NCBI GenBank assembly: GCA_043744715.1
Contig: JAYTUE010000088.1
Location: 4,462 to 68,461, forward strand
DNA: 64,000 nt
Direction: 5' to 3'
Origin: Verrucomicrobiota bacterium
GTDB lineage: Bacteria; Verrucomicrobiota; Verrucomicrobiia; Limisphaerales; CANJSG01
Shown here in pieces: positions 37,536-51,246 of this stretch; the first letter of the stretch is position 1; the number at the start of each line of letters is the position of its first letter. The notes beneath the pieces are model-generated. The model was not told the origin of the DNA. It worked only from the letters and a program-made list of their open reading frames with translations, and ran no database searches. A program made the translations under genes and the position numbers.

Positions 37536-37618
37536 CAGTCCAAGACCTGGCGGACCCAGCGGCGGCCACGCAGTCGCGGCAGCGTCTTGGACTGCGGTGC
37601 TGCTGCGCCGCTTTGGGG
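37536..37618. repeat. REP element, right copy
   Basis: CAGTCCAAGACCTGGCGGACCC...GCGGCAGCGTCTTGGACTGCGGTGCTGCTGCGCCGCTTTGGGG aligns with 36816..36900 over most positions. Confidence 0.8.
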
Positions 37619-37726
37619 AGGACGCGATGGAACAGAAACCGATCTGTCGGAGAAACCCTGCCTCTCCAAGGTGTCCATCAATCCAGGTTAAGACCACTCT
37701 ATCTGATGAGGTGTTTTTCTTCCGCC

Positions 37727-38995
37727 TCAGTTGAACTTGTTCTTCCGATACGCACCAATCACCGGAGCGTCCGGGTTCACTTCGGGGCCGAAATACCGCA
37801 GCGTGACGAGCGGTTCGGTCTCGCTGGTGTTCTCGAAGGTCACGCCGTTCTTCGCGCCGTCTTCGGTGCAGAAGTATTCGTCCTCGGTCAGTTCATTGAA
37901 GCGGATGAGCTTCGGCGAATTCAGCGGCTGGCCGTTGATCTTGCCGGAGCCCTGCACGCAGATGAGGCCGTAGGCGCCGGTGTCCTTGATCGTGGCTTTC
38001 ACGCCGGGTTCGACGGTGAGTTCCTTCGCGGTGAAGAGCTGTTCGCCATCGACCTTGCCGTAGACGATCCAGCGGTCGACGAAGCCTTCCTTGCGCGTGT
38101 CGGCCACCGGGACGGGTTCAAGGTAATGGTTGTCCTTGAAGTTCGGGTCCACGTTCTTCTCCCAGTCGAGCTGGTCGACGATGAAGTCGATGTCCTTGTG
38201 CTTCGATTTCGGCATGTCCTTTACGAGCAAACTCCACGGGACTTCGCGGCCTTCGACCAAGTTCTGATACATGCCGAAGACGTCCGAGCCCCATTGCGGC
38301 TCGTAGGTGCAGAGCGAACCGGGCGCGTGGAGGATGCACGGATCAATGAGCCAGCCAGTGCCGGGCTTGAGGCGGTAGGCCTTCGAGAGGTCGAGGATGC
38401 CGTTGTCGCCCTTGTTCCAATTTTCGATGCACTTGCGGACCTGCGCCTTCGTCGTGCCGGGCTCGAAGCCCATGAACGTGTAGGGGAAGTTGTTGCCGAC
38501 GTTGTTGTGCTGCGGCGGAAAGTAGTAGGACTCGGGTTTGCCTTCCTGGCCGACGAGCTTGGCCTGCGCGGCGCTCTGGTGCATGTGGTGGGGAATGGGC
38601 CCCATGTTGTCGAAGAACTTCGAGTAAACGGGCCACTTGCCATACTTCTTCCAAATCGCCTGGCCGACGAGCGTCGCGCCGCAATCCTCAACCGCCTGCT
38701 TGAGCGTGAAGCGTTCCTTGCCCACGACGCAGTAGTTCAAGCCCTCGTCCGCCGCACGGCCTTCGTTGGCCGTGACGGTGGTGGAGGCGAACCAGCGTTC
38801 GTCGATGCCGCCGCGGTTGAGGCCGTAGGCGTAGGTATCGTCGGGATGGAGCTTGATGCGCAGGCCGGGCTGAAGGAAGGAGCGCGGCACCCACGCGGGC
38901 GCGAGGCGGAGCAGGCCGCCGGTGCGGGTGAGTTCGGCGCCGACTTTCGCGGCGGTGTTCTTCTTGATGGTCTTGAGCTGGTTGACGGTGTTCAT
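37727..38995 (-). CDS. Cupin-fold class I phosphomannose-isomerase-like protein
   Basis: GKWPVYSKFFDNMGPIPHHMHQ and GKPESYYF resemble the PMI type I blocks (G.LPFLFKVL...SIQVHP; HKPE) as I recall them. A C-terminal second beta-barrel is present. The function is not assigned. Confidence 0.45.
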   Translation of the reverse strand: MNTVNQLKTIKKNTAAKVGAELTRTGGLLRLAPAWVPRSFLQPGLRIKLHPDDTYAYGLNRGGIDERWFASTTVTANEGRAADEGLNYCVVGKERFTLKQAVEDCGATLVGQAIWKKYGKWPVYSKFFDNMGPIPHHMHQSAAQAKLVGQEGKPESYYFPPQHNNVGNNFPYTFMGFEPGTTKAQVRKCIENWNKGDNGILDLSKAYRLKPGTGWLIDPCILHAPGSLCTYEPQWGSDVFGMYQNLVEGREVPWSLLVKDMPKSKHKDIDFIVDQLDWEKNVDPNFKDNHYLEPVPVADTRKEGFVDRWIVYGKVDGEQLFTAKELTVEPGVKATIKDTGAYGLICVQGSGKINGQPLNSPKLIRFNELTEDEYFCTEDGAKNGVTFENTSETEPLVTLRYFGPEVNPDAPVIGAYRKNKFN

Positions 38996-39066
38996 GAAAG
39001 CAATGTCGTGGTCGGTGCAGTCGGGAAAGCCTGAGCAAAGGGTCGAAAAGTGGGGAAGCGTTTTCG

Positions 39067-39837: not shown

Positions 39838-40794
39838 TCACTTGGGCAGCCACTTCTCCCAGTTCTTGGCGAAGGCCTCGATGTTGTCCTTGCCCACGGG
39901 CGTCAGCGGCGAGTTGTCGACCGCGGCCTTCGTCGGCTGCTTGAGGTGGAGCTTGTTCACGAGATGCTCCACCGACTTGTAGCCGTAGCCGTAGACATCC
40001 TGCGACAGGAGCAGCTGGACGTGGCCGCTGCGGACGTAGCCGAGCTGCTGCGGAAGGGCGTCGACGGAGACGCATTTGACCGTGCCGGGCGGCCACTTGA
40101 GCGCGTTGTCGGTGAAGAGCGGCCAACCGCCGAGGAGTCCCCAGCCGGTGATGTCGGGATTGGCCTGCATGACCTGCTCGATCTTGGCGACTGCGTCGGC
40201 GGGCGTCTCCTTGTGGTAGTAGATGTCGAGCAGCTTGATGCCGGGATGCTTCTTGGCGGCGGCGCGGAATCCGGCCGCGCGCTGCTGGAGGTTGGCGGCG
40301 TTCGGATTGCCGTCGATCGCGGCGACGACGCCCTTTCCTTTCAAGAGTTTCGCAAGCTGCTCGAAGGTTTCTTCGCCGCACTTGAAGTCGTCGATGCCGA
40401 GGGCGACGAAGCGCTTGCTGTTCGGCGCATCGCCGGAATACGTGACCGTCGGCACTCCTTGTTCGGATGCCTTGTTGATGGCGTCGGTCAGTTTGTTCGC
40501 GTCGGAGCAGCTGACGATCAAGCCGTCGACGCCGGTGAGCAGGAGCTGCTCGATGGTCTGGGCCTGCTTCTGCGCGTCCTCCTCGTTGGGTGTGCGCCAG
40601 TCGATCTTGATCTTGATGCCGTGCTTGGCGCCCAGCTCGCGGGCGGCGTCGAGCGCGCCGACCTTGGACGCCTCGAAGAAAGGGTTGCCCTGCGACTTGG
40701 CGATCATGCCGAAGGTGTAGGACTTCTGGGCGAATGCGGCCGGCACGGCGGCGAATACGGCCAGACAGGCGAACAGGCGGAGCAGCGATTGCAT
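39838..40794 (-). CDS. Sugar ABC transporter substrate-binding protein (RbsB/type I PBP family), orphan
   Basis: Signal peptide MQSLLRLFACLAVFAAVPAAFA, then GMIAKSQGNPFFE...VDGLIVSCSD. No cognate permease or ATPase gene is adjacent. Confidence 0.75.
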   Translation of the reverse strand: MQSLLRLFACLAVFAAVPAAFAQKSYTFGMIAKSQGNPFFEASKVGALDAARELGAKHGIKIKIDWRTPNEEDAQKQAQTIEQLLLTGVDGLIVSCSDANKLTDAINKASEQGVPTVTYSGDAPNSKRFVALGIDDFKCGEETFEQLAKLLKGKGVVAAIDGNPNAANLQQRAAGFRAAAKKHPGIKLLDIYYHKETPADAVAKIEQVMQANPDITGWGLLGGWPLFTDNALKWPPGTVKCVSVDALPQQLGYVRSGHVQLLLSQDVYGYGYKSVEHLVNKLHLKQPTKAAVDNSPLTPVGKDNIEAFAKNWEKWLPK

Positions 40795-40823
40795 GGCCCG
40801 AGTAAACGCGCCGGAAGGGTTTG

Positions 40824-40849
40824 GTTCCAAGTTCCAAGTTCCAAGGAAC
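40824..40849. repeat. (GTTCCAA)x3 tandem heptamer ending in the palindrome GTTCCAAGGAAC
   Basis: Read directly: ggttccaagttccaagttccaaggaac. It lies in the 101-nt divergent region between the SBP and ROK genes. Confidence 0.7.
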
Positions 40850-40895
40850 AAGCTTCACGCTTTTCCTCCGCCGAGCGGTCTTTCACAGTCGCCGC

Positions 40896-41822
40896 ATGAC
40901 TTTCCTCGGCATTGAGATTGGTGGAACCAAGCTCCAGATCGTCCTCGGCGACGAGCGCGGAACGATCCATCAGCGCTTCCGACGCACGGTGGCCAAGGAA
41001 CTTGGTGGCGCCGGCATCCGCGCCCAGATCGAAGCGGTCTTGGCGGATGAACTTCCAAAATTCCCCGCCAGTCCGGTTGCGATCGGCGTCGGCTTCGGCG
41101 GGCCGGTGGACTGGGCGACGGGCCGGATCGCCAAGAGCCACCAGATCGAAGGCTGGTCGGGCTTTGACATCTCCGGATGGCTGACGGGCCTGACGGGGAT
41201 GCCGGTCTTCGTGGACAACGACGCCAACGTGGCCGCGCTCGGCGAAGCGCTGCACGGAGCGGGACGCGGGGCGAATCCGGTCTTCTACATCACGATGGGC
41301 AGCGGCGTCGGCGGCGGGCTCGTGGTCGACGGGAAGATTTTTCACGGAGCCAAGCCGGGTGAATCGGAGATCGGTCATGTCCGCCTGGACAAGTCGGGCG
41401 TGATCATCGAGGACCGCTGCTCCGGCTGGGCGGTGGACCGGCGCATCCGCGAGGCCGTGGCGCTCCATCCGCATGGTCCGTTGGGCATCCACGCAGCAAA
41501 TCTCACTCGCGGCGAAGCCCGTGCTCTTGCTCCCGCGCTGGCGGAGAATGATCCCCTGGCCGAAGCCATTCTCAGCGAGTTCGCGGACAACCTGGCCTTC
41601 GGTTTGTCGCATGTGGCCCAGTTGATGCACCCGGAGCGCACCGTCCTTGGTGGCGGTCTCGCGCTCGTCGGAGAACCGTTGCGCGACGCGGTTGCCAGGG
41701 CGTTGCCCCGTTACACCATGGAAGTCTTCGGTGATGGGCCGGCGGTGGTGCTGGCGGGTTTGGGTGAAGACGCGGTGCCGGTGGGCTGTTTGGCCATGGT
41801 GGCGCAGCGGATGGGGAAATAA
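40896..41822 (+). CDS. ROK-family sugar kinase (glucokinase-like, no N-terminal HTH)
   Basis: MTFLGIEIGGTKLQIV..., VDNDANVAALGE, GSGVGGGLV and GESEIGH. It begins directly with the ATPase phosphate-1 motif. Confidence 0.85.
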   Translation: MTFLGIEIGGTKLQIVLGDERGTIHQRFRRTVAKELGGAGIRAQIEAVLADELPKFPASPVAIGVGFGGPVDWATGRIAKSHQIEGWSGFDISGWLTGLTGMPVFVDNDANVAALGEALHGAGRGANPVFYITMGSGVGGGLVVDGKIFHGAKPGESEIGHVRLDKSGVIIEDRCSGWAVDRRIREAVALHPHGPLGIHAANLTRGEARALAPALAENDPLAEAILSEFADNLAFGLSHVAQLMHPERTVLGGGLALVGEPLRDAVARALPRYTMEVFGDGPAVVLAGLGEDAVPVGCLAMVAQRMGK

Positions 41823-41825
41823 TTC

Positions 41826-41887
41826 TCGTCCACGAAGGACACTTCTTGGCCGGGCACGGAGGGTTGCCACCCATGGCCCGGCCTACG
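41826..41887. repeat. REP-like hairpin element related to the 7.7-kb repeats (GGCCGGGC ... GCCCGGCC + CTACGG)
   Basis: Shares ttggccgggc...gcccggcctacgg and an inverted version of the cttcgtgg block with copies A and B. The loop is expanded to 20 nt. Confidence 0.55.
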
Positions 41888-41919
41888 GAAACAAAAAGGC
41901 CATCCGGTTCGCGGATGGC
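41888..41919 (-). terminator. Rho-independent terminator downstream of rho (minus strand)
   Basis: GGCCATCCG-gttcg-CGGATGGCC is a perfect 9-bp stem. On the minus strand it is followed by TTTTTGTTT. It sits about 25 nt after the rho stop. Confidence 0.65.
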
Positions 41920-41943
41920 CTTCGTGAGAGTTGTTGAACTGGC

Positions 41944-44010
41944 TTACGCCTGTCCGCCCATGCCGAGGAGGAACATGATGTTGCTCGGGGTTTTCTTGAG
42001 CTTGCCAAGGAGAAGTTCCATGGCCTCGACCGGGGGCACGCCGGTGAGGGCGCGGCGGAGCATGCTGACGCGGCTGAGTTCGTCCGGATGGTAGAGGAGC
42101 TCTTCCTTGCGGGTGCCGGAACGCTCGATGTTGATCGAGGGGAAGATGCGGCGATCCACGAGGCCGCGGTCGAGGTGGACCTCCATGTTGCCGGTGCCCT
42201 TGAACTCCTCGAAAATGACTTCGTCCATGCGGCTGCCGGTATCGACGAGCGCGGTGGCCATGATGGTAAGCGAACCGCCTTCCTCCAGATTGCGCGCGGC
42301 TCCGAAGAAGCGTTTGGGCTTGTGCAGCGCGTTGGCATCGACACCGCCGGAGAGGATCTTGCCGGAGTGCGGCTGGATCGTGTTGTAGGCGCGGGCGAGA
42401 CGGGTGATGGAATCGAGCAGGATGATGACATCCTTCTTGTGCTCGACCATGCGTTTGGCTTTCTCGATGACCATCTCGGCGACCTGGACGTGGCGCTCGG
42501 GCGGCTCGTCGAAGGTGGAGCTGATGACTTCGGCGCCCTTGCAGGTGCGCTCCATGTCGGTGACTTCCTCGGGGCGCTCGTCGATCAGGAGGATGAAGAG
42601 ATAGCTGTTCGAGTCGTTCTTCAGCATCGCGTTGGCGAGCTTCTGCATGAGAACGGTCTTGCCGGTGCGCGGCGGTGCGACGATGAGGCCGCGGGTGCCC
42701 TTGCCGATGGGGCAGACGAGGTCCATCACACGCGTGCTGAGCTCGGAGGCGTCGGTCTCGAGGAGGAAACGCCGGTTCGGGAAAAGCGGAGTGAGGTTCT
42801 CGAAGAGCGTCTTGTCCTTCGCCGCGTCGGGATCCGCGCCGTCGACCTTCTCGACCTTGAGCAGGGCGAAGAACTTCTCCTTCTCCTTGGGCGGACGGAT
42901 CTGGCCCTGGATGAGGTTGCCGGTCTGGAGATCGAAACGGCGGATCTGCGAGGGCGAGACGTAGATGTCCTCGGGACAGGGCAGGTAGTTGAAGCTCTGC
43001 GAACGGAGGAATCCGTAGCCCTCGCCGAGGACTTCGAGGACACCCTCGGCGTAGAGCAAGCCGCCGCGTTCGGCGTTGCGGGCGAGGATGTGGAAGATGA
43101 CCTCGTGCTTCCGCATGGTGCCGAAGTTCTCGATGTCGAACTCGCGGGCCATGTTGTTCAGGTCGCCGATGGGCATGGCCTGGAGCTTGGCGATGTTGAG
43201 GTTCACGCCCGGCTTGCGCTCGGCGCGGATGGCCTGGCGCGCCGGGAGATTCGCCTCGACCTCGGGAAGGTCGATCGGCCGGCTCGGAGCCTCCGGATGG
43301 AGCGTTTCGGGACCGTATCCGGAATCTGGCTGCGGCTGGGGGGGCGGCTGCTGGGGCTGCGGAGCCTGGCCTTGCGGGGCTGAACGGGGATCACGCGGGC
43401 CGCGTTGGTCACGTTGGTCACGGGGCTCGAAACGCCGCTGCTGGAAATTCTGGCCCCCTTGCTGCGGCTGTTGGGGTCTTCCCTGAGGTCCCTGACCCTG
43501 GGGCGGACGCGGACCTTGTTGAGGCGCGGGCTGGCCCTGGGGTTGAACCGGACGAACGGGTGCTTGGCCCGGAGCATTTCCTTGAACCGGAGCCGGTGCC
43601 GGCGGACGAACCGGAGGCGCAGGGCGCGAGGCCGGCCCCGGAGCGGGAGGAGGAAACATGGGTTCGCGGACAACCGGAGTCGACGGAGCGGGATTCGACT
43701 CGGCTTTGGCTTCCACCACAGGCGCGGTCGCACGCTCCGGCTTCGCTTCGGCAACGGGGACCGGAACGGGTTCAGGGCGCAAAACCGGGGCGGGAAGCTT
43801 TTCGGCCACGGGTGCCGCCGGCAGATCGAGCTGCTCGGTAGCTGCGGTTTTCTTGGCGGCCTTCTTGGGCTTGGCGGCCTTCTTGGGCTTAGCTGCCGCC
43901 TTGGCCGCCGGCTTCGGGGCGGCGATCGATTCTTCCGCGGCAGCATCCTCGGCTGCGTCGGCCTTGGCGGATTTGCGGGGAGCGCGTTTAATGGTGGCGC
44001 GGGCGGGCAT
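41944..44010 (-). CDS. rho: Transcription termination factor Rho with ~300-aa low-complexity N-terminal extension
   Basis: C-terminal two-thirds is canonical Rho ([15 protein letters not shown]; [17 protein letters not shown]; [11 protein letters not shown]). The N-terminus is AKP-rich and then P/Q/G/R-rich. Start chosen at ATG 44010. Confidence 0.9.
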
Positions 44011-44157
44011 AAACAAAAGGGATTTTCGGTTCTGGGGCGGGCTCGGTTGAGACGTCTTTCCAGGGATGGTGTTCAAACGCCAGCTCGTCCAGGGGGAAAA
44101 ACGGGAATGACGGCCCAAAGGCGTCTCTGCGGCTGGAGGGACAGTGCTGTCAGTCCC

Positions 44158-46308
44158 TCAATAAGGCAACGGGAACTTTGCGGTCAGCTCGCGCACGCGG
44201 CTCTTCACGGCATGGGCGGCGGCTACGTTCTTAACGTCGAGGAGGACCTCGGAGATCATGTCGGCGATGGCGGCCATTTCCTGTTCCTTCATGCCCCGCG
44301 TGGTGACTGCGGGTGTTCCCAGCCGCACGCCGCTGGCCTGGAAGGGCGATCTGGTCTCGAACGGAATGGTGTTCTTGTTCGTGGTGATGCCGGCTTCGTC
44401 GAGCACGAGCTGGCAGTCCTTGCCCGTCATGTTCTTCGCGCCCACGTCCACCAGCATGAGATGGTTCTCTGTGCCGCCGGAGACGAGGCGGAAACCGTTT
44501 CGCTTCATGCCGTCGGCCAACGCGGCGGCGTTCTTCACGATCTGCTGCTGGTAGCCCTTGAAGCTGTCCTGTAGCGCCTCCTTGAAGCAGACGGCCTTGG
44601 CCGCGATGACGTGCATGAGCGGCCCGCCCTGGATGCCGGGGAAGACGTTGGAGTCGATTTCCTTCGCATGTTTCTCGCGGCACATGATCAGGCCGCCGCG
44701 GGGACCGCGCAGGGTTTTGTGCGTGGTGGTGGTGACGAAGTCGGCGTAGGGAACGGGGCTCGGATGGATGCCGGCGGCGACGAGACCCGCGATGTGCGCG
44801 ATGTCCGCCAGCATGTAGGCGCCGACCTCTTGGGCGATCTCGCCGAGGCGCTTGAAGTCGATGATGCGCGGATAGGCGGACGCGCCGACGGTGATCATCT
44901 TCGGCCTGTGCTCACGGGCCATCTGCGCGAGCTGGTCGTAGTCGATGCGTTCGTCGTCCTTGCGGACGCCGTAGTGGACGATCTCGAAGAACTTGCCGGA
45001 GAAGTTGGCCTTGTTGCCGTGGGTCAAATGGCCGCCATGGGACAGGTCCATGGTCAGCATCTTGTCGCCGGGCTTCAGCACGGCGAAATACACGGCCATG
45101 TTCGCGCCGGAGCCGGAGTGCGGCTGGACGTTGGCGTGCTCGGCGCCGAAGAGTTTCTTCGCGCGGTCGATGGCAAGGCGTTCCGCGTCGTCGACGTGTT
45201 CGCACCCGCCATACCAGCGTTTGCCGGGATAGCCCTCGGCATACTTGTTCGTCAGGACGGAGCCCTGCGCCTCCATGACGGCGGGGCTGGTGAAGTTCTC
45301 GGAGGCGATGAGCTCGATGTTTTCAAGTTGTCGCCGACGTTCCAGCTGGACGATGTCGGCGATCTCGGAATCCACCGAGCGCAGTCGAAGCGCGGGATCG
45401 ACCTCGAACTTGACGACCCGCCGCTCGTGGCGGCCGCCGGCGAATGAGCCGCCGAGGAAGGCGTCGATGATCTCGATGGCCTGCTGGGGCGAGGTCTGCT
45501 TCGCGCCGAGGCAGAGGATGTTCGCGTTGTTGTGCTCGCGGGCGAGGGCGGCCATCTCGGCATTGAAGACGAGCGCGGCGCGGGCGCCGGGAACCTTGTT
45601 GGCGGCCATGCTCATGCCGATGCCGGAGGTGCAGACGAGAAGCCCGCATTGCGCTTTCCCGGCGACCACGGCCTCGGCGACGGCCTTGGCGTGGTCGGGA
45701 TAGTCCGTGGACTCGGTTGAATGGGCGCCCAGGTCCTCGAAGACGACGCCTTTGGACTGGAGATGGCGTTTAAGGGTTTCCTTGAGCTGGTAGCCGCCGT
45801 GGTCGCAACCGATCGAGAGCATGGTTTTCTTCAGGGATGCCGGTGAAGGATGGTTCTGTTCGATGAAACGGAGAATGGTCGAGATGCCCTGCTCTATCTG
45901 GTCGCGGCAGGCCACGTAGACGTCGAGAGCCCCCCCGATGGGATCGCTGATGTCCTTCTCATACGCGTCGAGAGTGTCGTCGAATTCGCGGAGGAGGAAC
46001 GTCTTGTCGGCCGCCTGGGGGTAGAGCAGGAGAATGGTCTCCAGATGGCCGTGGGTCATGCCGAAGATGTAGTCGGCCTCCTTGACCAGATCCCGCGTCA
46101 GCATCTGACTGCGCTGCTGGCCGATGTCGATGCCGATCTCGCGGCAGGCCCGGACGGAATTGTGGCTGGGGGACTGGCCGTCCATCGCCCCCACCCCGGC
46201 GGAAAGGACGCGGAAATCGCCGCGATCCCGGACCGCGCGACGGAAAATGCCTTCAGCCATGGGGCTGCGGCAGATGTTCCCGGTGCAGATGAAAAGGACG
46301 GTCTTCAT
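44158..46308 (-). CDS. Tri-domain fusion: LMW protein-tyrosine/arginine phosphatase + ribose-5-phosphate isomerase B + serine hydroxymethyltransferase
   Basis: A single uninterrupted 716-aa ORF. The P-loop [13 protein letters not shown] and DISDPIGG mark the LMW-PTP domain. [13 protein letters not shown]...[14 protein letters not shown] marks the RpiB/LacAB domain. [18 protein letters not shown]...[14 protein letters not shown] marks the SHMT domain with its PLP lysine. Confidence 0.85.
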
Positions 46309-46367: not shown

Positions 46368-47423
46368 TCATCGCCCGGGCTTCACGATCTGGATGGCCCG
46401 GAGAAGATCCAACGCACGCGCCAAGGCAGGATCCTGAATGACCGGCTTGTCCTGCTCAGAAACCCTGGAGGCCGGCCCGGTCGGCGCGGCAACCGGAGCA
46501 TCGAATTCATCCTCCGAATGGACTCCCTCGCGCTGCATCCGGACAAGGTCCGCCTCGTTCACACGGCGACGCGACCGGGGAGATGCCGACGGGCCGAAAC
46601 GCCGATACGGGTCTTCGAGCCATTGGGCTTCAAATTCCTTGGCCACCGGCACCGCGATGTCCGGCTCCAGCGGTCCGTCCATCAACCGCCCGGATCCCAG
46701 TTTCACGGGCTGATCAGCCACGAAGATGGATTGTCCTCCGGAAAACTTCAGCTCCTTGAAAGCACGGGCGCGGCCGGCCGTTTCCGAACCGAGCACGAGG
46801 CCGATCCGGCTGTCGCGAAGCAATCCGGCCAGCGCTTCAGCGGCTTCCCGGGTTTCTCCGTTGACCAGCGCGGTCACAGGAATGCCGATGGCGTTGGTCT
46901 TGATGCTGGAGCGGGCTTCCCCACCGGGCCATTGCAGCAAGGTCTGCTCGACCGCGAGAAACCGGTCCGCTGTCGAGGCGGCGGCGGCGAAATCACTGCC
47001 GGAGGCATTCCGCAGATCCAGCACGAGCCCTCGCACGGCTCCGTTGGTTCCCAGGATGCGGATCGTGTCGGAAAGCCGGGCCGGCAGTTCCGGGCCGACC
47101 ACCCCCACCCGCACATAGGCGAATTGTCCGTCAAACAAGCGGCTCCGCAGGATGACGGCGGAGCTGGAAGACGAGCCGATGTTGATCCCGGGCACCTGTA
47201 GGCGGCCTCGGAGTTTTTCCACCAACCCTTCAAGCGCGGCCTTGTCGAGTTCGGCCTTGGACACGCCGGGCAAGTTCTTCTGTAGTTGATCGTAAACCTC
47301 CTGGAAGGGGGGAAGGGACTTCTGCGGATCAGCCGCAGACACGTCCGCAGGCCAGCCCAAGGCCGCAAAAAGCCCCGCAGCCATGGTCAAATCCGTCACT
47401 TGCAGCTTCATCATGCGCCGCAA
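46368..47423 (-). CDS. S41 (C-terminal processing peptidase)-like secreted protein without PDZ; catalytic residues apparently substituted
   Basis: Signal peptide. GLVLDLRNASGS versus the canonical LDLRNNPGG. VNGETREAAEALAG where S41 enzymes have VN.GSASASEI.AG. GSETAGRA where they have G..TFGKG. Confidence 0.55.
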   Translation of the reverse strand: MRRMMKLQVTDLTMAAGLFAALGWPADVSAADPQKSLPPFQEVYDQLQKNLPGVSKAELDKAALEGLVEKLRGRLQVPGINIGSSSSSAVILRSRLFDGQFAYVRVGVVGPELPARLSDTIRILGTNGAVRGLVLDLRNASGSDFAAAASTADRFLAVEQTLLQWPGGEARSSIKTNAIGIPVTALVNGETREAAEALAGLLRDSRIGLVLGSETAGRARAFKELKFSGGQSIFVADQPVKLGSGRLMDGPLEPDIAVPVAKEFEAQWLEDPYRRFGPSASPRSRRRVNEADLVRMQREGVHSEDEFDAPVAAPTGPASRVSEQDKPVIQDPALARALDLLRAIQIVKPGR

Positions 47424-47875: not shown

Positions 47876-47974
47876 TAATCATTTCCGCCTACCGGGCAAC
47901 CGGTGGCTTCTCCTTAACCAATTATCCAAAACCGATCGGACCACCGGAGGTTTGGCCCGAAGAAATAATCCCAG

Positions 47975-49366
47975 ATGAAAATCCGATCCAAAAGCATCCC
48001 CGCGACATTGGTAGCTGCAGGACTCTTCGGTTTCGGCCCGAAGTCCCTCGCTGCCGAGGAATCCATTGCCGAACTGAAGACACTCATCCAGCAACTCGAT
48101 CAGAAGATCAAAGTGCTCGAACGCAAGCAGGAGCTCGACAAAGAGTCCGCCACCGAGAAGTCCAAGACCACGGCGGTAGTCAGCGCCGGGCCCGGCGGCT
48201 TCCAGCTCCGTTCCGCTGACACCAATTTCGTCCTGAAGATCCGCGGCTACGTCCAAGCCGACGCGCGCTTCTATCCGGATGACAACTCCTCCGGCACCAA
48301 GAACGACACCTTCCTCCTGCGCCGGGTCCGGCCGATCTTCGAGGGCACGCTCTACGACAGATACGACTTCCGGGTGATGCTGGATTTCCCATCTGGAAAC
48401 ACCATTACCGCTAACAACAACGGCCTCGTCCAAGACGCCTATCTCAACGCGAGATTCTTCCCTGAATTCCAGCTTCAGATTGGCAAGTTCAAGGAGCCCG
48501 TCGGCCTCGAACGCCTCCAATCTGCAGCCAATCTTCTTTTCATCGAGCGTTCGTATCCGACCCAGCTTCTGCCCAACCGCGACGTGGGCATCCAGATCCA
48601 GGGCGATCTCTTCAACAACACGCTCAACTACCAGGTCGGAGCCTTCAACGGCGTGCCCGACGGCGGCAGCGGGGACACGGATGCGACCAACTTCGACGAC
48701 GAAAAGGATGTTGCCGCCCGGCTTTTTGCGGCGCCCTTCCGCAACTCCGACAACGACGCGCTGCGCGGTCTCGGTTTCGGCATCGCGGGAACCTTCGGCG
48801 ACCGTGAAGGCGCTCCGCGCGGATACGCCTCCGCCGGCCAGCAATCCTTCTTCGCCTACACCGGAACGGTTGTGGCCGATGGCCAGCATTGGCGCATCAG
48901 CCCGCAGGCCTATTACTACTGGGGGCCATTCAGACTCATCGCGGAATACGCCGTCTCCTCGCTGCACCTCCGCAACACCGTCAACGGCCGGCAGCAGGAG
49001 CTGACCCACACCGGTTGGCAGGTGGCGGCCTCGTGGTTCCTCACGGGAGAGGACAACTCCTTCAAGGCGGTCCAGCCAGCCAAACCGTTCACCGTGGGCG
49101 GCGACGGCTGGGGCGCGTGGGAAGTCGCCGTGCGCATCAGCCAGCTCGACATCGACGACGACGCATTCACGGGCGCGGGGCCGTTTGCCAGCGCCGCAAC
49201 GGCCGCCTCCGCCGCCACGTCCTATGGCGTAGGCGTGAATTGGCACCTCAACCGCAACGTGAAGTTCTCCCTCAACTACGAACTCACCGACTTCGACGGC
49301 GGCACCAGCCCGCTCCTCGCCAACGGCGAACAAGCCCTGTTCCTGCGTGCTCAAGTCGCCTTCTGA
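47975..49366 (+). CDS. OprO/OprP-family anion-selective porin
   Basis: Signal peptide, N-terminal coiled coil (EESIAELKTLIQQLDQKIKVLERKQEL), then a beta-barrel with FVLKIRGYVQADARFY, RRVRPIFEG and the C-terminal aromatic LFLRAQVAF. Confidence 0.75.
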   Translation: MKIRSKSIPATLVAAGLFGFGPKSLAAEESIAELKTLIQQLDQKIKVLERKQELDKESATEKSKTTAVVSAGPGGFQLRSADTNFVLKIRGYVQADARFYPDDNSSGTKNDTFLLRRVRPIFEGTLYDRYDFRVMLDFPSGNTITANNNGLVQDAYLNARFFPEFQLQIGKFKEPVGLERLQSAANLLFIERSYPTQLLPNRDVGIQIQGDLFNNTLNYQVGAFNGVPDGGSGDTDATNFDDEKDVAARLFAAPFRNSDNDALRGLGFGIAGTFGDREGAPRGYASAGQQSFFAYTGTVVADGQHWRISPQAYYYWGPFRLIAEYAVSSLHLRNTVNGRQQELTHTGWQVAASWFLTGEDNSFKAVQPAKPFTVGGDGWGAWEVAVRISQLDIDDDAFTGAGPFASAATAASAATSYGVGVNWHLNRNVKFSLNYELTDFDGGTSPLLANGEQALFLRAQVAF

Positions 49367-49396
49367 CCCGTCAACAAAACCTTTTTCCAGAATCCC

Positions 49397-50392
49397 ATGA
49401 ACCTCTCCCGTATCGTCCTCGTTCTGGCCCTTTCTCTGGCATCCAGCGCTTGGGCCAAGGACCTCAAGCTCCTCAACGTCTCCTACGACCCCACGCGCGA
49501 GCTCTACACCGAGTTCAATGCCGCCTTCGCCAAACACTGGAAGGCCAAAACCGGCGACAACGTCACCGTTGAACAATCCCATGGCGGTTCCAGCAAACAG
49601 GCCCGCAGCGTGATCGACGGACTCCCGGCCGACGTCGTCACCCTCGCGCTGGCCTACGACATCGACGCCATCTCGGACAAGTCGCGCCGCCTTCCGGCCG
49701 ACTGGCAGAAGAAGCTGCCCAACAACAGCGCGCCCTACACCTCCACGATCAACTTCCTCGTCCGGAAAGGAAATCCCAAGGGCATCAAGGACTGGAACGA
49801 CCTCGTGAAACCCGGCGTCTCCGTCATCACGCCCAATCCGAAGACCTCCGGCGGCGCCCGTTGGAACTACCTCGCCGCATGGGGATACGCGCTGGAGAAG
49901 TCCGGCAACGACGAGGCCAAGGCGAAGGAGTTCGTTGGCAAACTTTTCAAGAACGTGCCCGTGCTCGATTCCGGCGCGCGCGGTTCCACCTCGACCTTCG
50001 TGCAACGCGGCATCGGCGACGTCCTGTTGGCCTGGGAGAATGAAGCGTTCCTCGCGATCAAGGAATTCGGCGCGGACAAGTTCGAGATCGTCACGCCGTC
50101 CATCTCGATCCTCGCCGAACCCACCGTCACGGTCGTCGACAAGGTGGCGAAGAAGAAAGGCACCGAGGCCCTGGCCCAGGCGTATCTCGAACACCTCTAC
50201 TCGGACGAAGGCCAGGACATCGCCGGCAAACACTTCTACCGCCCGCGCAGCGAGAAGGCCGTCGCGAAATACGCTTCGCAGTTCCCCAAGCTGAAGCTCC
50301 TCTCCATCGACGCTTCGTTCGACGGCTGGCGCGCGGCGCAGAAGAAGCACTTCGATGACGGCGGAATCTTCGACGACATCTACAAGCCCTGA
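49397..50392 (+). CDS. sbp: Sulfate/thiosulfate ABC transporter substrate-binding protein
   Basis: [13 protein letters not shown]...[16 protein letters not shown]...[19 protein letters not shown]...[20 protein letters not shown] is nearly collinear with E. coli Sbp/CysP. Confidence 0.93.
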
Positions 50393-50418
50393 ACCACGGT
50401 TCCGCATTCCTTCCCTCC

Positions 50419-51246
50419 ATGAACTCCGCGATCCTTGAACCGTCCCACTCCTCCGGATCAACCATCCCACGACGACGCAGCCTGGCAGCCCTCCTCGCGC
50501 CGCTCGAACGAATGGCTTCGGTTTCCGGCAGCCTCCTGAAGCGGAGCGCCGGGCGGTTCGAGGTCGATGGAGAGGACTATGAGTTGCCGCGTTATGTGTT
50601 CCACGGACCAGCGGGTGGCGGCGATCCCCTGCGCATCGGCATCTTCGCCGCGATCCACGGCGACGAACCGGAAGGGGCCGCCGGCTTGATCTCCTTCGTC
50701 CAGCAGCTCGTCCGCAATCCCGCCATCGCCCAAGGCTACGTGCTGTTCCTCTACCCGGTCTGCAATCCCACCGGCTACGAGGACGGCACCCGCAATTCGC
50801 GCCGTGGCCACGACTTGAACCGCGAGTTCTGGAACACCACCCACGAACCCGAGGTGCTCCTGCTCCAGAACGAGCTTTGCACGCACGCATTCCACGGGCT
50901 GATCGCGCTGCACTCGGACGATACGAGCCATGGACTCTACGGTTTTGTCTCCGGCGCGACGCTGACAAAGGACCTTCTTGAGCCGGCGCTCAAGGCCTCC
51001 GAGCAGTTCCTGCCGCGCAACGACGACGCGGTGATCGACGGCTTCAACGCCCGCCACGGCATCATCCGCCAGGGCTACAAGGGCATCCTCAAGGCGCCAC
51101 CGAAAGTCCACCCGCGTCCGTTCGAGATCGTCTTCGAAACCCCGCAGCACGCGCCGCAGTTCCTCCAGGAGAAGGCCCTCGTCGTCGCGCTCCATTCGAT
51201 CCTGACCGAATACCGCAGGGTCATCAGCTACGCCGCGAACATCTAG
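50419..51246 (+). CDS. M14-like zinc hydrolase (succinylglutamate desuccinylase/aspartoacylase-type) embedded in the sulfate operon
   Basis: [12 protein letters not shown] (HxxE zinc motif), [26 protein letters not shown] and LIALHSD (third ligand). It starts 27 nt after sbp and ends 2 nt before cysT. The N-terminal ~35 codons are uncertain. Confidence 0.65.

Follow-up and report, generated by a model that had tools for sequence, protein, structure and literature searches.

The locus raises two questions: whether a single gene of a verrucomicrobium encodes a phosphatase of the LMW-PTP type, a ribose 5-phosphate isomerase (RpiB) and a serine hydroxymethyltransferase (SHMT) as one polypeptide, and, if so, what the joining of the three enzymes means. 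The gene lies in a 64-kb stretch of DNA, here called the window, from a host with a high GC content (63%). The gene and its parts, in the order of the protein, are:

44158..46308, minus strand: whole fusion gene LMW-PTP - RpiB - SHMT, one uninterrupted ORF
45859..46308, minus strand: LMW-PTP (LMWPc) domain, aa 1-150 (Pfam PF01451, 109 bits)
45823..45858, minus strand: variable linker 1 (aa 151-162), with low conservation and low pLDDT
45403..45822, minus strand: RpiB domain, aa 163-302 (Pfam PF02502, TIGR01120)
45385..45402, minus strand: linker 2, aa 303-308 (VDPALR), which joins the end of RpiB to the start of SHMT in about 6 residues
44161..45384, minus strand: SHMT domain, aa 309-716 (Pfam PF00464, NF000586, PDB matches)

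The first-pass annotation had described one unbroken frame of 716 amino acids. This was borne out by the ORF listing, with 716 codons, an ATG start, a TGA stop at 44158-44160 and no internal stops; the frame lies on the minus strand, which had not been stated, and translation of the same segment on the plus strand yielded many stops. The GC content at third codon positions was even over the three parts of the gene (0.85 to 0.89). The protein was 100% identical to the database protein P0001, and no second copy of the SHMT, RpiB or PTP genes was found within the 64-kb window.

All three domains were recognized with E-values from 1e-31 to 1e-171, so that chance matches are of no concern. The phosphatase match spans aa 4-143, with 109 bits versus a cut-off of 23, and contains the two hallmarks of the LMW-PTP superfamily: an N-terminal C-X5-R-(S/T) P-loop, here C8-T-G-N-I-C-R-S15 (nt 46264-46287), and a D-P loop with the general acid, D122-P123 (nt 45940-45945). 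The RpiB domain matched the LacAB_rpiB family PF02502 at aa 165-300 (181 bits versus a cut-off of 25) and the rpiB equivalog model TIGR01120 (155.9 bits versus a cut-off of 138.65), and it was far under the cut-offs of the LacA and LacB models. Its catalytic set, D169-H170, Cys226 (nt 45631-45633), H259-N260 and R293/H294/R296, aligns with those of the Thermotoga maritima (1o1x) and Clostridium thermocellum (3he8) enzymes; Cys226 corresponds to C66 of E. coli RpiB, and the C-terminal Arg/His/Arg residues are phosphate binders. At the position following Cys+1, the window protein has Ser, and the family has Thr or Ser. The SHMT domain matched PF00464 at aa 310-685, covering profile positions 2-399 of 399 (570 bits versus a cut-off of 27), and NF000586 over profile positions 1-403 of 404 (647 bits versus a cut-off of 335); the region extended over aa 310-714 in the overall domain call. 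It aligned to the solved structures 3pgy and 1kkj with about 560 to 570 bits, and it contains the PLP-binding Lys531 (nt 44716-44718) in a T-T-T-H-K motif and Asp502, the aspartate that contacts PLP-N1. The domain models and motif positions thus uphold the earlier description of three complete enzymes with catalytic motifs, and every motif quoted at the time was present: CTGNICRS (aa 8-15) and the DP-loop Asp (aa 122-123) in the phosphatase, CDHGG (aa 168-172) and CTSGIG (aa 226-231) in RpiB, and the PLP-lysine motif in SHMT (aa 529-539).

A merger of three adjacent genes during sequencing or assembly would produce the same picture, and the source is probably a high-GC assembly of metagenome type; in other lineages, the genes do occur as separate, closely spaced neighbors. 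We examined 120 listed homologs with 75% to 100% identity from NCBI, JGI, ENA and Logan assemblies, some of them on contigs of more than 100 kb. The architecture was unbroken, with three Pfam domains, in 120 of 120 listed homologs from these four data sources. The lengths were about 713 to 726 amino acids in 118 homologs, and 675 and 700 amino acids in the remaining 2. The junctions at aa 155-165 and aa 300-315, for which a check for stops and frameshifts had been suggested, were clean in the window and in the 120 independently assembled homologs. The three-domain architecture was also present in at least 9 GTDB species-representative genomes and has been reported from the finished genome of Methylacidiphilum infernorum V4. 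The artifact explanation was therefore dropped, since there is practically no chance that it accounts for 120 independent assemblies and the GTDB genomes. The names of the homologs include Verrucomicrobiota, Akkermansiaceae and Opitutaceae, and one source MAG was assigned to Akkermansia muciniphila. Gene callers sometimes begin the ORF at Met17, whereby the catalytic cysteine is lost.

The catalytic residues indicated that each of the active sites is under purifying selection. Cys8, Arg14 and Asp122-Pro123 of the phosphatase were invariant in 119 to 120 of the 120 homologs, the RpiB catalytic set (including Asp169, His170, Cys226, His259, Arg293 and Arg296) in all 120, and His530-Lys531 of SHMT in 119. 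Judged by these comparisons, the fusion ORF with its three apparently catalytically competent domains is real, and it represents a conserved housekeeping gene in Verrucomicrobia.

The implied novelty of the architecture did not hold, because a protein with SHMT, LMW-phosphatase and RpiB domains, Minf_1669, was described in M. infernorum V4 with the same functional inference (Hou et al. 2008, Biol Direct 3:26, PMC2474590), and because hundreds of database entries display the three-domain architecture. The architecture is already known and common in Verrucomicrobia. The window protein is of the Minf_1669 type in that a single ORF encodes the three domains and the genomic surroundings are verrucomicrobial, although its host is another verrucomicrobium; orthology to Minf_1669 is presumed from the shared domains and the shared phylum, since Hou et al. 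are silent on domain order. We found no published accounts of the fusion beyond Hou et al. (2008) in the literature on the PVC group, Akkermansia and ywlE-ywlF-glyA. In the PDB search, no solved structure spanned two or all of the domains; the SHMTs of Geobacillus stearothermophilus (1kkj) and Escherichia coli (1dfo) and the RpiB proteins 1o1x and 3he8 are stand-alone, single-domain proteins that matched over their full length with high scores and share the catalytic residues.

The first-pass annotation had called the product a polyprotein, and the 3 enzymes could in principle be released by proteolysis or made separately, with translation starting inside the ORF at the former rpiB and glyA starts. 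Met163, the first residue of the RpiB part, is aligned with the start of rpiB in Pontiella and is the vestigial rpiB start, which has been kept in the window protein. Furthermore, a Met is found at aa 301 in 66% of the homologs, and an S41 peptidase gene is located directly upstream. However, Met163 is shared by only 10% of the homologs, aa 301 is a Phe in the window protein, and no conserved internal Met was found at either junction in the homolog alignment, nor any Shine-Dalgarno-like sequence upstream of either junction in the window. The linkers are variable, with a mean identity of 0.22 for linker 1 and 0.35 for linker 2 compared with 0.63 to 0.86 for the domains in the 120-homolog alignment, which revealed no conserved motif in either linker. 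Linker 2 continues from the C-terminal helix of RpiB: solved RpiB chains stop at residues aligned to aa 305-308, approximately, and solved SHMT chains align from aa 308-313. With about 6 residues, it would provide little space for a protease site. Nothing suggests processing, and we consider the production of separate enzymes by either route very improbable. An AF2 model of the monomer contained 3 confident domains, with pLDDT values below 50 at aa 154-161 in linker 1 and lowered values around linker 2. The pTM was 0.58, and confident packing between the domains was absent.

The genes on both sides of the fusion gene are encoded on the same strand, as follows:

46368..47423, minus strand: S41-family peptidase gene upstream of the fusion gene (Pfam PF03572), 59-nt gap
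41944..44118, minus strand: rho, the gene for the 724-aa transcription terminator and downstream neighbor of the fusion gene (Pfam Rho_N, Rho_RNA_bind, ATP-synt_ab), 39-nt gap
41895..41923, minus strand: intrinsic-terminator-like hairpin with a 12-bp stem and a T run, just past rho (promoter/terminator scan)

The promoter and terminator scan identified no terminator between the fusion gene and rho. The S41 peptidase gene is probably the first gene of a unit that is co-transcribed with the fusion gene and rho, and the hairpin past rho is the likely end of this unit. Rho contains a long N-terminal extension, and the translated S41 peptidase starts, as judged by eye, with a putative export-signal-like sequence. 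The S41 neighbor recurred in the locus L002, assigned to A. muciniphila, and in L081, and rho immediately followed the fusion gene in L001, L002, L004, L005 and L006. Both neighbors are common to loci assigned to A. muciniphila, Pedosphaera and Verrucomicrobiales. MAG labels are sometimes wrong: the L001 locus was labeled Bifidobacteriaceae, yet is of the verrucomicrobial type.

To place the fusion in a wider context, genomes were scanned by tblastn with a junction-spanning query, and the phyletic picture is a sample consisting of the best 80 of more than 597 loci. The SHMT tree was a simple neighbor-joining tree, which carries no support values. Among the best 80 loci, single three-domain ORFs were found in loci assigned to A. 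muciniphila, Pedosphaera, Spartobacteria, Chthoniobacterales and Verrucomicrobiales. Loci assigned to Pontiella, Lentisphaerae and the "PVC group" in the same sample contained an RpiB-SHMT ORF with the PTP gene directly upstream, and RpiB and SHMT were also fused in an "Eisenbacteria" locus (L046). Three separate adjoining genes were present in Omnitrophota and Actinomycetota loci of this sample, and Roseburia had the genes in this order but spaced apart. Some Opitutales loci among the 80 had separate genes for PTP and SHMT and lacked RpiB, which means that the fusion is not obligatory even inside the phylum. An Acidimicrobiales-labeled locus of the sample (L018) encoded a three-domain fusion with a linker 1 of 125 residues; this triple fusion originated independently. 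Clustering at 50% identity of the protein databases, with 1.84 billion representatives, yielded 3 three-domain clusters and about 5 RpiB-SHMT clusters, and the named two-domain clusters were from Victivallales and Kiritimatiellia. The two-domain proteins of Kiritimatiellia and Lentisphaeria/Victivallales (MBQ6924650.1, MBR6076496.1) have the same short-linker join as the window protein, with 50% to 56% identity over aa 160-715, approximately, but they lack the N-terminal phosphatase, which in several loci is encoded by a separate ORF directly upstream.

The order and orientation of the 3 gene families are the same in Bacillus subtilis, where ywlE, ywlF (rpiB), ywlG and glyA follow each other, and likewise in the Roseburia locus L056; in this Firmicutes string, the genes are separate and others intervene, whereas the window gene is fused. 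The idea that a conserved neighborhood has collapsed into one gene holds, given the series of separate genes, RpiB-SHMT and triple fusions in the sampled loci and the arrangement in Pontiella, where PTP and RpiB-SHMT share one reading frame and a single TAG lies between them. A single in-frame stop separated PTP from RpiB-SHMT in 3 of the best 80 of the more than 597 loci. In-frame stops between rpiB and glyA in about 20 loci of other phyla were not taken as a signal; this excess was discounted as a ranking bias because a junction-spanning tblastn query favors same-frame loci among the best 80 of more than 597. The fusion very likely arose by the loss of stop codons between neighbors of a widely conserved string, (tsaC/sua5)-ywlE-rpiB-glyA. 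The RpiB-SHMT join is common to the Verrucomicrobiia, Kiritimatiellia and Lentisphaeria lineages, with the phosphatase joined on in Verrucomicrobiia and similar fusions arising independently elsewhere.

The identity of the phosphatase bears on the function of the fusion. The best PDB matches of this domain were the YwlE structures 4pic and 4kk3, with 86 to 92 bits, compared with about 61 bits for Wzb and about 51 bits for ArsC, and it was far under the cut-offs of the NCBIfam models for Wzb and ArsC. It is thus closer to YwlE than to Wzb, Ptp or ArsC. A passage in PMC7772506, citing Fuhrmann 2013, describes a Thr at position 5 of the P-loop (Thr11 in YwlE) as the determinant of phospho-arginine specificity. 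All solved YwlE structures have CTGNTCRS, and this Thr together with DPFGG makes YwlE an arginine phosphatase, whereas the window protein has Ile12 (CTGNICRS) and DPIGG. The 120 listed homologs had Ile in 72 cases, Val in 44 and Thr in 2, and the motif was absent in 2. No clean relation was found between Thr versus Ile or Val in the P-loop and the fusion state, since both residue types occurred in fused and separate forms. The earlier comparison with ywlE as an arginine/tyrosine phosphatase thus stands insofar as YwlE proteins are the nearest solved relatives, but not in the sense of a straightforward arginine phosphatase.

From the observed reading frame, domains, catalytic conservation, linkers, spread and series of gene arrangements, we infer that the product is one polypeptide with three active, independent enzyme domains that arose by stop loss in a conserved gene string. 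As a whole, this explanation, which includes the assignment of the phosphatase to the YwlE-like subfamily of the LMW-PTP family, is in our judgment very likely. Each domain would most likely run its usual reaction on its own substrate: RpiB would convert ribose-5-phosphate to ribulose-5-phosphate, SHMT would convert serine and tetrahydrofolate to glycine and 5,10-methylene-tetrahydrofolate, and the phosphatase would hydrolyze a phospho-ester or a phospho-amidate. The fusion may mainly ensure that two enzymes supplying nucleotide precursors are expressed in equimolar amounts; they would provide ribose-5-phosphate for PRPP, as well as the glycine and one-carbon units that go into purines and thymidylate.

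The first-pass annotation had regarded the fusion as Rosetta-stone evidence for a functional link. Under such a coupling, the phosphatase would regulate the attached RpiB or SHMT, or a partner, by dephosphorylation, or it would have as its substrate a phosphorylated small molecule from the sphere of pentose-phosphate or folate metabolism, or the protein would have to assemble as a hetero-domain oligomer, a "nucleotide-precursor metabolon" whose kinetics are altered. The PTP-rpiB-glyA order is kept over distant phyla, fusions have occurred at least 2 independent times (Verrucomicrobiia and L018), RpiB-SHMT is also fused in L046, and conservation is strict at each of the three active sites. One divergent cluster of three-domain proteins (P0210/P0271) has kept the SHMT fold and intact RpiB and PTP domains but lost the PLP lysine, which hints at a structural role for the SHMT body in the fusion. 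McsB, the arginine kinase counteracted by YwlE in Firmicutes, is not known in Verrucomicrobia, which leaves room for another substrate of the phosphatase. On the other hand, the predicted structure has no confident packing between domains, linker 1 is variable in sequence and reaches 125 residues in L018, and the fusion has undergone fission or loss in Opitutales. Recurrent fusion is also expected from adjacency with tiny spacers alone. The fusion suggests rather than demonstrates a Rosetta-stone link, because translationally coupled neighbors can be joined simply by losing a stop codon, and no intermediate is common to the three reactions. Coupling is in our view unlikely, if less so than separate enzymes. 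In its strongest form, built on the fusions in Verrucomicrobiia and the Acidimicrobiales lineage, the Sua5/TsaC-PTP fusions beside rpiB and the pseudo-SHMT of P0210/P0271, repeated independent fusion would reflect a physical or regulatory unit with the SHMT dimer as scaffold, in which the phosphatase targets, in cis, the enzymes joined to it or else a pentose or one-carbon phosphometabolite, and not the classical phospho-Tyr or phospho-Arg proteins; this, too, we regard as unlikely.

The fusion draws attention to the role of a YwlE-like phosphatase beside rpiB and glyA in bacteria for which arginine phosphorylation is not known. The series from separate genes to two-domain and three-domain proteins, along with independent re-invention and secondary fission, provides a tidy case of the evolution from operon to fusion through lost stop codons. 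The fusion is annotated after one of its domains, as "ribose 5-phosphate isomerase B" or "glycine hydroxymethyltransferase", and because of this naming, metabolic reconstructions of Verrucomicrobia, including Akkermansia, may miss glyA, rpiB or the phosphatase.

The fusion gene was read from the minus strand as a single frame of 716 codons with an ATG start and no internal stop codons in the ORF listing, and the translated plus-strand frame across the same interval contained many stops. Pfam assigned three essentially full-length, non-overlapping domains to the protein: a low-molecular-weight phosphatase (PTP), ribose-5-phosphate isomerase B (RpiB) and serine hydroxymethyltransferase (SHMT). 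The first-pass annotation of an uninterrupted 716-amino-acid frame with three complete enzymes was thus borne out, and every motif that it quoted was found.

Features of the fusion locus
46368-47423, minus strand, S41-family peptidase gene, 59 nt upstream of the fusion gene
44158-46308, minus strand, PTP-RpiB-SHMT fusion gene
aa 4-143, LMWPc (Pfam, 109 bits), with P-loop CTGNICRS (aa 8-15) and D122-P123
aa 165-300, LacAB_rpiB (Pfam, 181 bits), with CDHGG (aa 168-172) and C226TSGIG
aa 310-685, SHMT (Pfam, 570 bits), with THK531TLRGPRGG
41944-44118, minus strand, rho, 39 nt downstream of the fusion gene
41923-41895, strong terminator-like site after rho (terminator scan)

Among the NCBIfam models, the protein exceeded the curated cut-offs for SHMT (NF000586, 647 vs 335) and for the rpiB equivalog (TIGR01120, 155.9 vs 138.65), and none of the LacA/LacB, Wzb or ArsC models reached its own cut-off. 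The GC3 values were even over the three parts of the gene (0.85-0.89), and no second PTP, RpiB or SHMT copy was found within the 64-kb window.

A word-indexed search of 5.8 billion proteins listed 120 matches with 75-100% identity, including an identical NCBI entry (P0001), and all 120 carried the three Pfam domains. The length was about 713-726 amino acids in 118 of them and 675 and 700 amino acids in the other two. Record names included "ribose 5-phosphate isomerase B" from Verrucomicrobiota, Opitutaceae and Akkermansiaceae bacteria, as well as "glycine hydroxymethyltransferase". A sequencing or assembly artefact at the domain junctions would have to recur in all 120 listed homologues, which were drawn from NCBI, JGI, ENA and Logan assemblies with some contigs longer than 100 kb, and its probability is negligible. 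The fusion is real, is by no means rare and is already known: the novelty implied by the first-pass annotation was not sustained, as both the finding and its interpretation were published 18 years before by Hou et al. (PMC2474590) for Minf_1669 of Methylacidiphilum infernorum. No other paper that mentions or characterises the fusion was found in the library searched.

The chain ends of the RpiB structures from T. maritima (1o1x) and C. thermocellum (3he8) aligned at about aa 305-308 and the SHMT structures from aa 308-313, which leaves room for a linker 2 of about six residues only (VDPALR); linker 1 lies at about aa 151-162. Mean identities to the window protein across 120 full-length family members were 0.72 for PTP, 0.63 for RpiB and 0.86 for SHMT, and 0.22 and 0.35 for linkers 1 and 2. 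Processing or internal starts could yield separate enzymes, but Met163, the old rpiB start, was kept in only 10% of the homologues and no SD-like sequence was found before Met163 or position 301 (Met in 66% of the homologues, Phe in the window protein), which makes this very improbable. The AlphaFold2 model, built from a 70-sequence alignment (mean pLDDT 79.7, pTM 0.58), folded each of the three domains with confidence; pLDDT fell below 50 at aa 154-161 and dipped to about 55 at aa 291-300. That the domains are truly coupled, physically or by regulation, is unlikely, though less so than separate products, given that the model gave no confident inter-domain arrangement. No solved structure was found that spans two or all three of the domains. 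The best-supported reading is that of a single polypeptide in which each domain would perform its own usual chemistry.

All three active sites are maintained across the family: PTP Cys8, Arg14, Ser15, Asp122 and Pro123, RpiB Asp169, His170, Cys226, His259, Asn260, Arg293, His294 and Arg296, and SHMT Glu337, Tyr356, Asp502, His530, Lys531 and Arg534 were invariant in 119-120 of the 120 members. The lone exception was P0271, which belongs with P0210 to a divergent cluster that has all three domains at 36% identity. Its SHMT domain lacked the His-Lys pair and three more catalytic residues and scored 130 bits in Pfam, against 183 bits for RpiB. The two proteins read GGTGATMRGPGTG in place of the PLP-lysine motif, while PTP (P-loop CTGNSCRS) and RpiB were intact, and the SHMT domain looks like a pseudo-SHMT retained as a scaffold.

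An exhaustive HMMER search of 1.84 billion representatives at 50% identity identified 3 three-domain clusters (P0121, P0123, P0210) and about 5 RpiB-SHMT clusters (P0122, P0124, P0125, P0133, P0196), the named ones from Victivallales and Kiritimatiellia. The three-domain representatives all start at Met17, the Met of CRSPMAE, and lack the catalytic Cys. Because P0271 starts 19 residues earlier and includes the P-loop, the short form in its cluster is a gene-caller miscall of the start codon rather than a loss of the Cys, which probably also explains P0121 and P0123; automated annotation may thus wrongly imply a dead phosphatase domain. Other SHMT fusions in this search (P0137, P0145, P0194, P0266) comprised DHFR-thymidylate kinase-SHMT (811 aa), DHFR-SHMT (608 aa), MeaB GTPase-SHMT (728 aa) and SHMT-AMP-binding enzyme (941 aa).

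The closest solved relatives of the PTP domain were YwlE arginine phosphatases, namely those of Geobacillus (4pic) and B. subtilis (4kk3) and 4egs. The DP loop, DPIGG, is similar to DPFGG in YwlE and unlike the DPYY motif of classical LMW-PTPs. The P-loop, however, is CTGNICRS rather than the CTGNTCRS of these relatives. At position 5 the 120 listed homologues had Ile (72), Val (44) or Thr (2), and the motif was absent in 2. According to PMC7772506, citing Fuhrmann 2013, Thr at this position (YwlE Thr11) determines phospho-arginine specificity and a change to Ile moves activity towards phospho-tyrosine; the same paper gives Ile for most LMW-PTPs. Judged from these relatives and motifs, the domain belongs to the YwlE-like subfamily but lacks the sole tested determinant of arginine specificity. 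It was also noted that 4egs matches the LMW-PTP domain (CTGNTCRS) and not RpiB, although its deposited name is "Ribose 5-phosphate isomerase RpiB"; that name was probably inherited from how a fused or adjacent gene had been annotated.

One genome per GTDB species was scanned with a junction-spanning profile (aa 160-420), and of the more than 597 loci confirmed the best 80 were analysed as a sample, with architectures assigned from six-frame ORFs using the three domains as queries and key ORFs checked by Pfam. Among these 80 loci, a single PTP-RpiB-SHMT ORF was present in L018 and in L001-L009, with MAG labels such as Akkermansia muciniphila, Pedosphaera, Spartobacteria, Chthoniobacterales and Verrucomicrobiales. 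An RpiB-SHMT ORF was found in Pontiella, Kiritimatiellae, Lentisphaeria/Victivallales, some Akkermansiaceae and one "Eisenbacteria" MAG, seven times with a PTP gene directly upstream. Three adjacent separate genes occurred in Omnitrophota, where PTP is itself joined to a Sua5/YrdC domain, in an Actinomycetota MAG and, spaced, in Roseburia; adjacent but separate rpiB and glyA genes in Acidobacteriota, Desulfobacterota, Nitrospirota, Actinomycetota, Alphaproteobacteria and Myxococcota; and adjacent PTP and SHMT genes with RpiB absent in five Opitutales loci. At three loci (L010 from Pontiella, L011 and L042), PTP and RpiB-SHMT lay in one frame with one stop codon between them. By comparison with the Pontiella junction, '...LFIHTGQK*KEGPIMKIAIGADHGG', linker 1 of the window protein is what was once the end of a gene, a spacer and a start codon. 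The separate, two-domain and three-domain forms, together with this junction, agree with the earlier proposal of a collapsed ywlE-rpiB-glyA neighbourhood. A same-frame stop at many rpiB-glyA loci was dismissed as a tblastn ranking bias. Sua5/YrdC (TsaC-like)-LMWPc fusions directly upstream of rpiB or RpiB-SHMT (L011:3744-4937, L057:3910-5001, L041, L028) are a further fusion point in the conserved tsaC-ywlE-rpiB-glyA string.

In a rough neighbour-joining tree of SHMT domains, inferred without support values, L018 (labelled Acidimicrobiales) clustered with unfused Acidimicrobiales SHMTs, and its 866-aa protein (L018:4098-6695, plus strand), in which a Pro/Ala/Glu-rich linker of 125 residues joins PTP to RpiB, therefore appears to be an independent triple fusion. 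The "Eisenbacteria" fusion fell outside the PVC clade. The three-domain L008 adjoined the two-domain Pontiella, and a separate capture of the PTP domain is possible. The Opitutales SHMTs (L053, L055, L062, L065, L067) branched from within the clade of fused Verrucomicrobiia proteins, a placement that points to secondary fission with loss of RpiB; PTP and SHMT were adjoining, separate genes, no RpiB was found between them or within ±5 kb, and three of the five had a CTAN[IV]CRS P-loop. The contig of L001 (CAZCZP010000001.1), labelled "uncultured Bifidobacteriaceae", carried a locus of typical verrucomicrobial type, with a three-domain gene and a rho gene 72% and 86% identical to those of the window. 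It is probably mis-binned, and MAG labels should therefore be treated with caution.

The S41 peptidase gene, the fusion gene and rho are probably co-transcribed: the terminator scan found no terminator-like site among them, and the S41 gene is preceded by a divergent intergenic region of low GC (0.51). A rho gene directly follows the fusion gene in L001, L002, L004, L005 and L006, and L002 and L081 have an S41 gene upstream of it. The window Rho has 724 residues, of which about 300 form a Pro/Gln/Ala-rich, low-complexity extension at the N-terminus, with Rho_N beginning only at aa 312. Two candidate ORFs near rho and RNase III (40704-41870, minus strand, 388 aa; 37613-39034, plus strand, 473 aa) had no Pfam match at E<=1e-3. 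A 1029-aa ORF (47879-50968, minus strand), antisense to genes for a phosphate-selective porin (47975-49366, plus strand) and a solute-binding protein (49397-50392, plus strand), is almost certainly spurious, a long open frame of the kind that high-GC DNA typically produces.

Our additions to the published finding are modest: the comparative series, the apparently independent actinobacterial fusion, the suggested Opitutales fission and the Ile-for-Thr P-loop. Loss of stop codons within a conserved operon whose genes lie close together would have produced the fusion, and it would have been retained because it carries no cost and locks the enzymes into a fixed ratio. The PurR purine regulon of E. 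coli includes glyA, which is coupled to the use of R5P (PMC12651746). A plausible metabolic logic would be the supply of nucleotide precursors, with RpiB providing ribose-5-phosphate for PRPP and SHMT feeding purine and thymidylate synthesis with glycine and one-carbon units.
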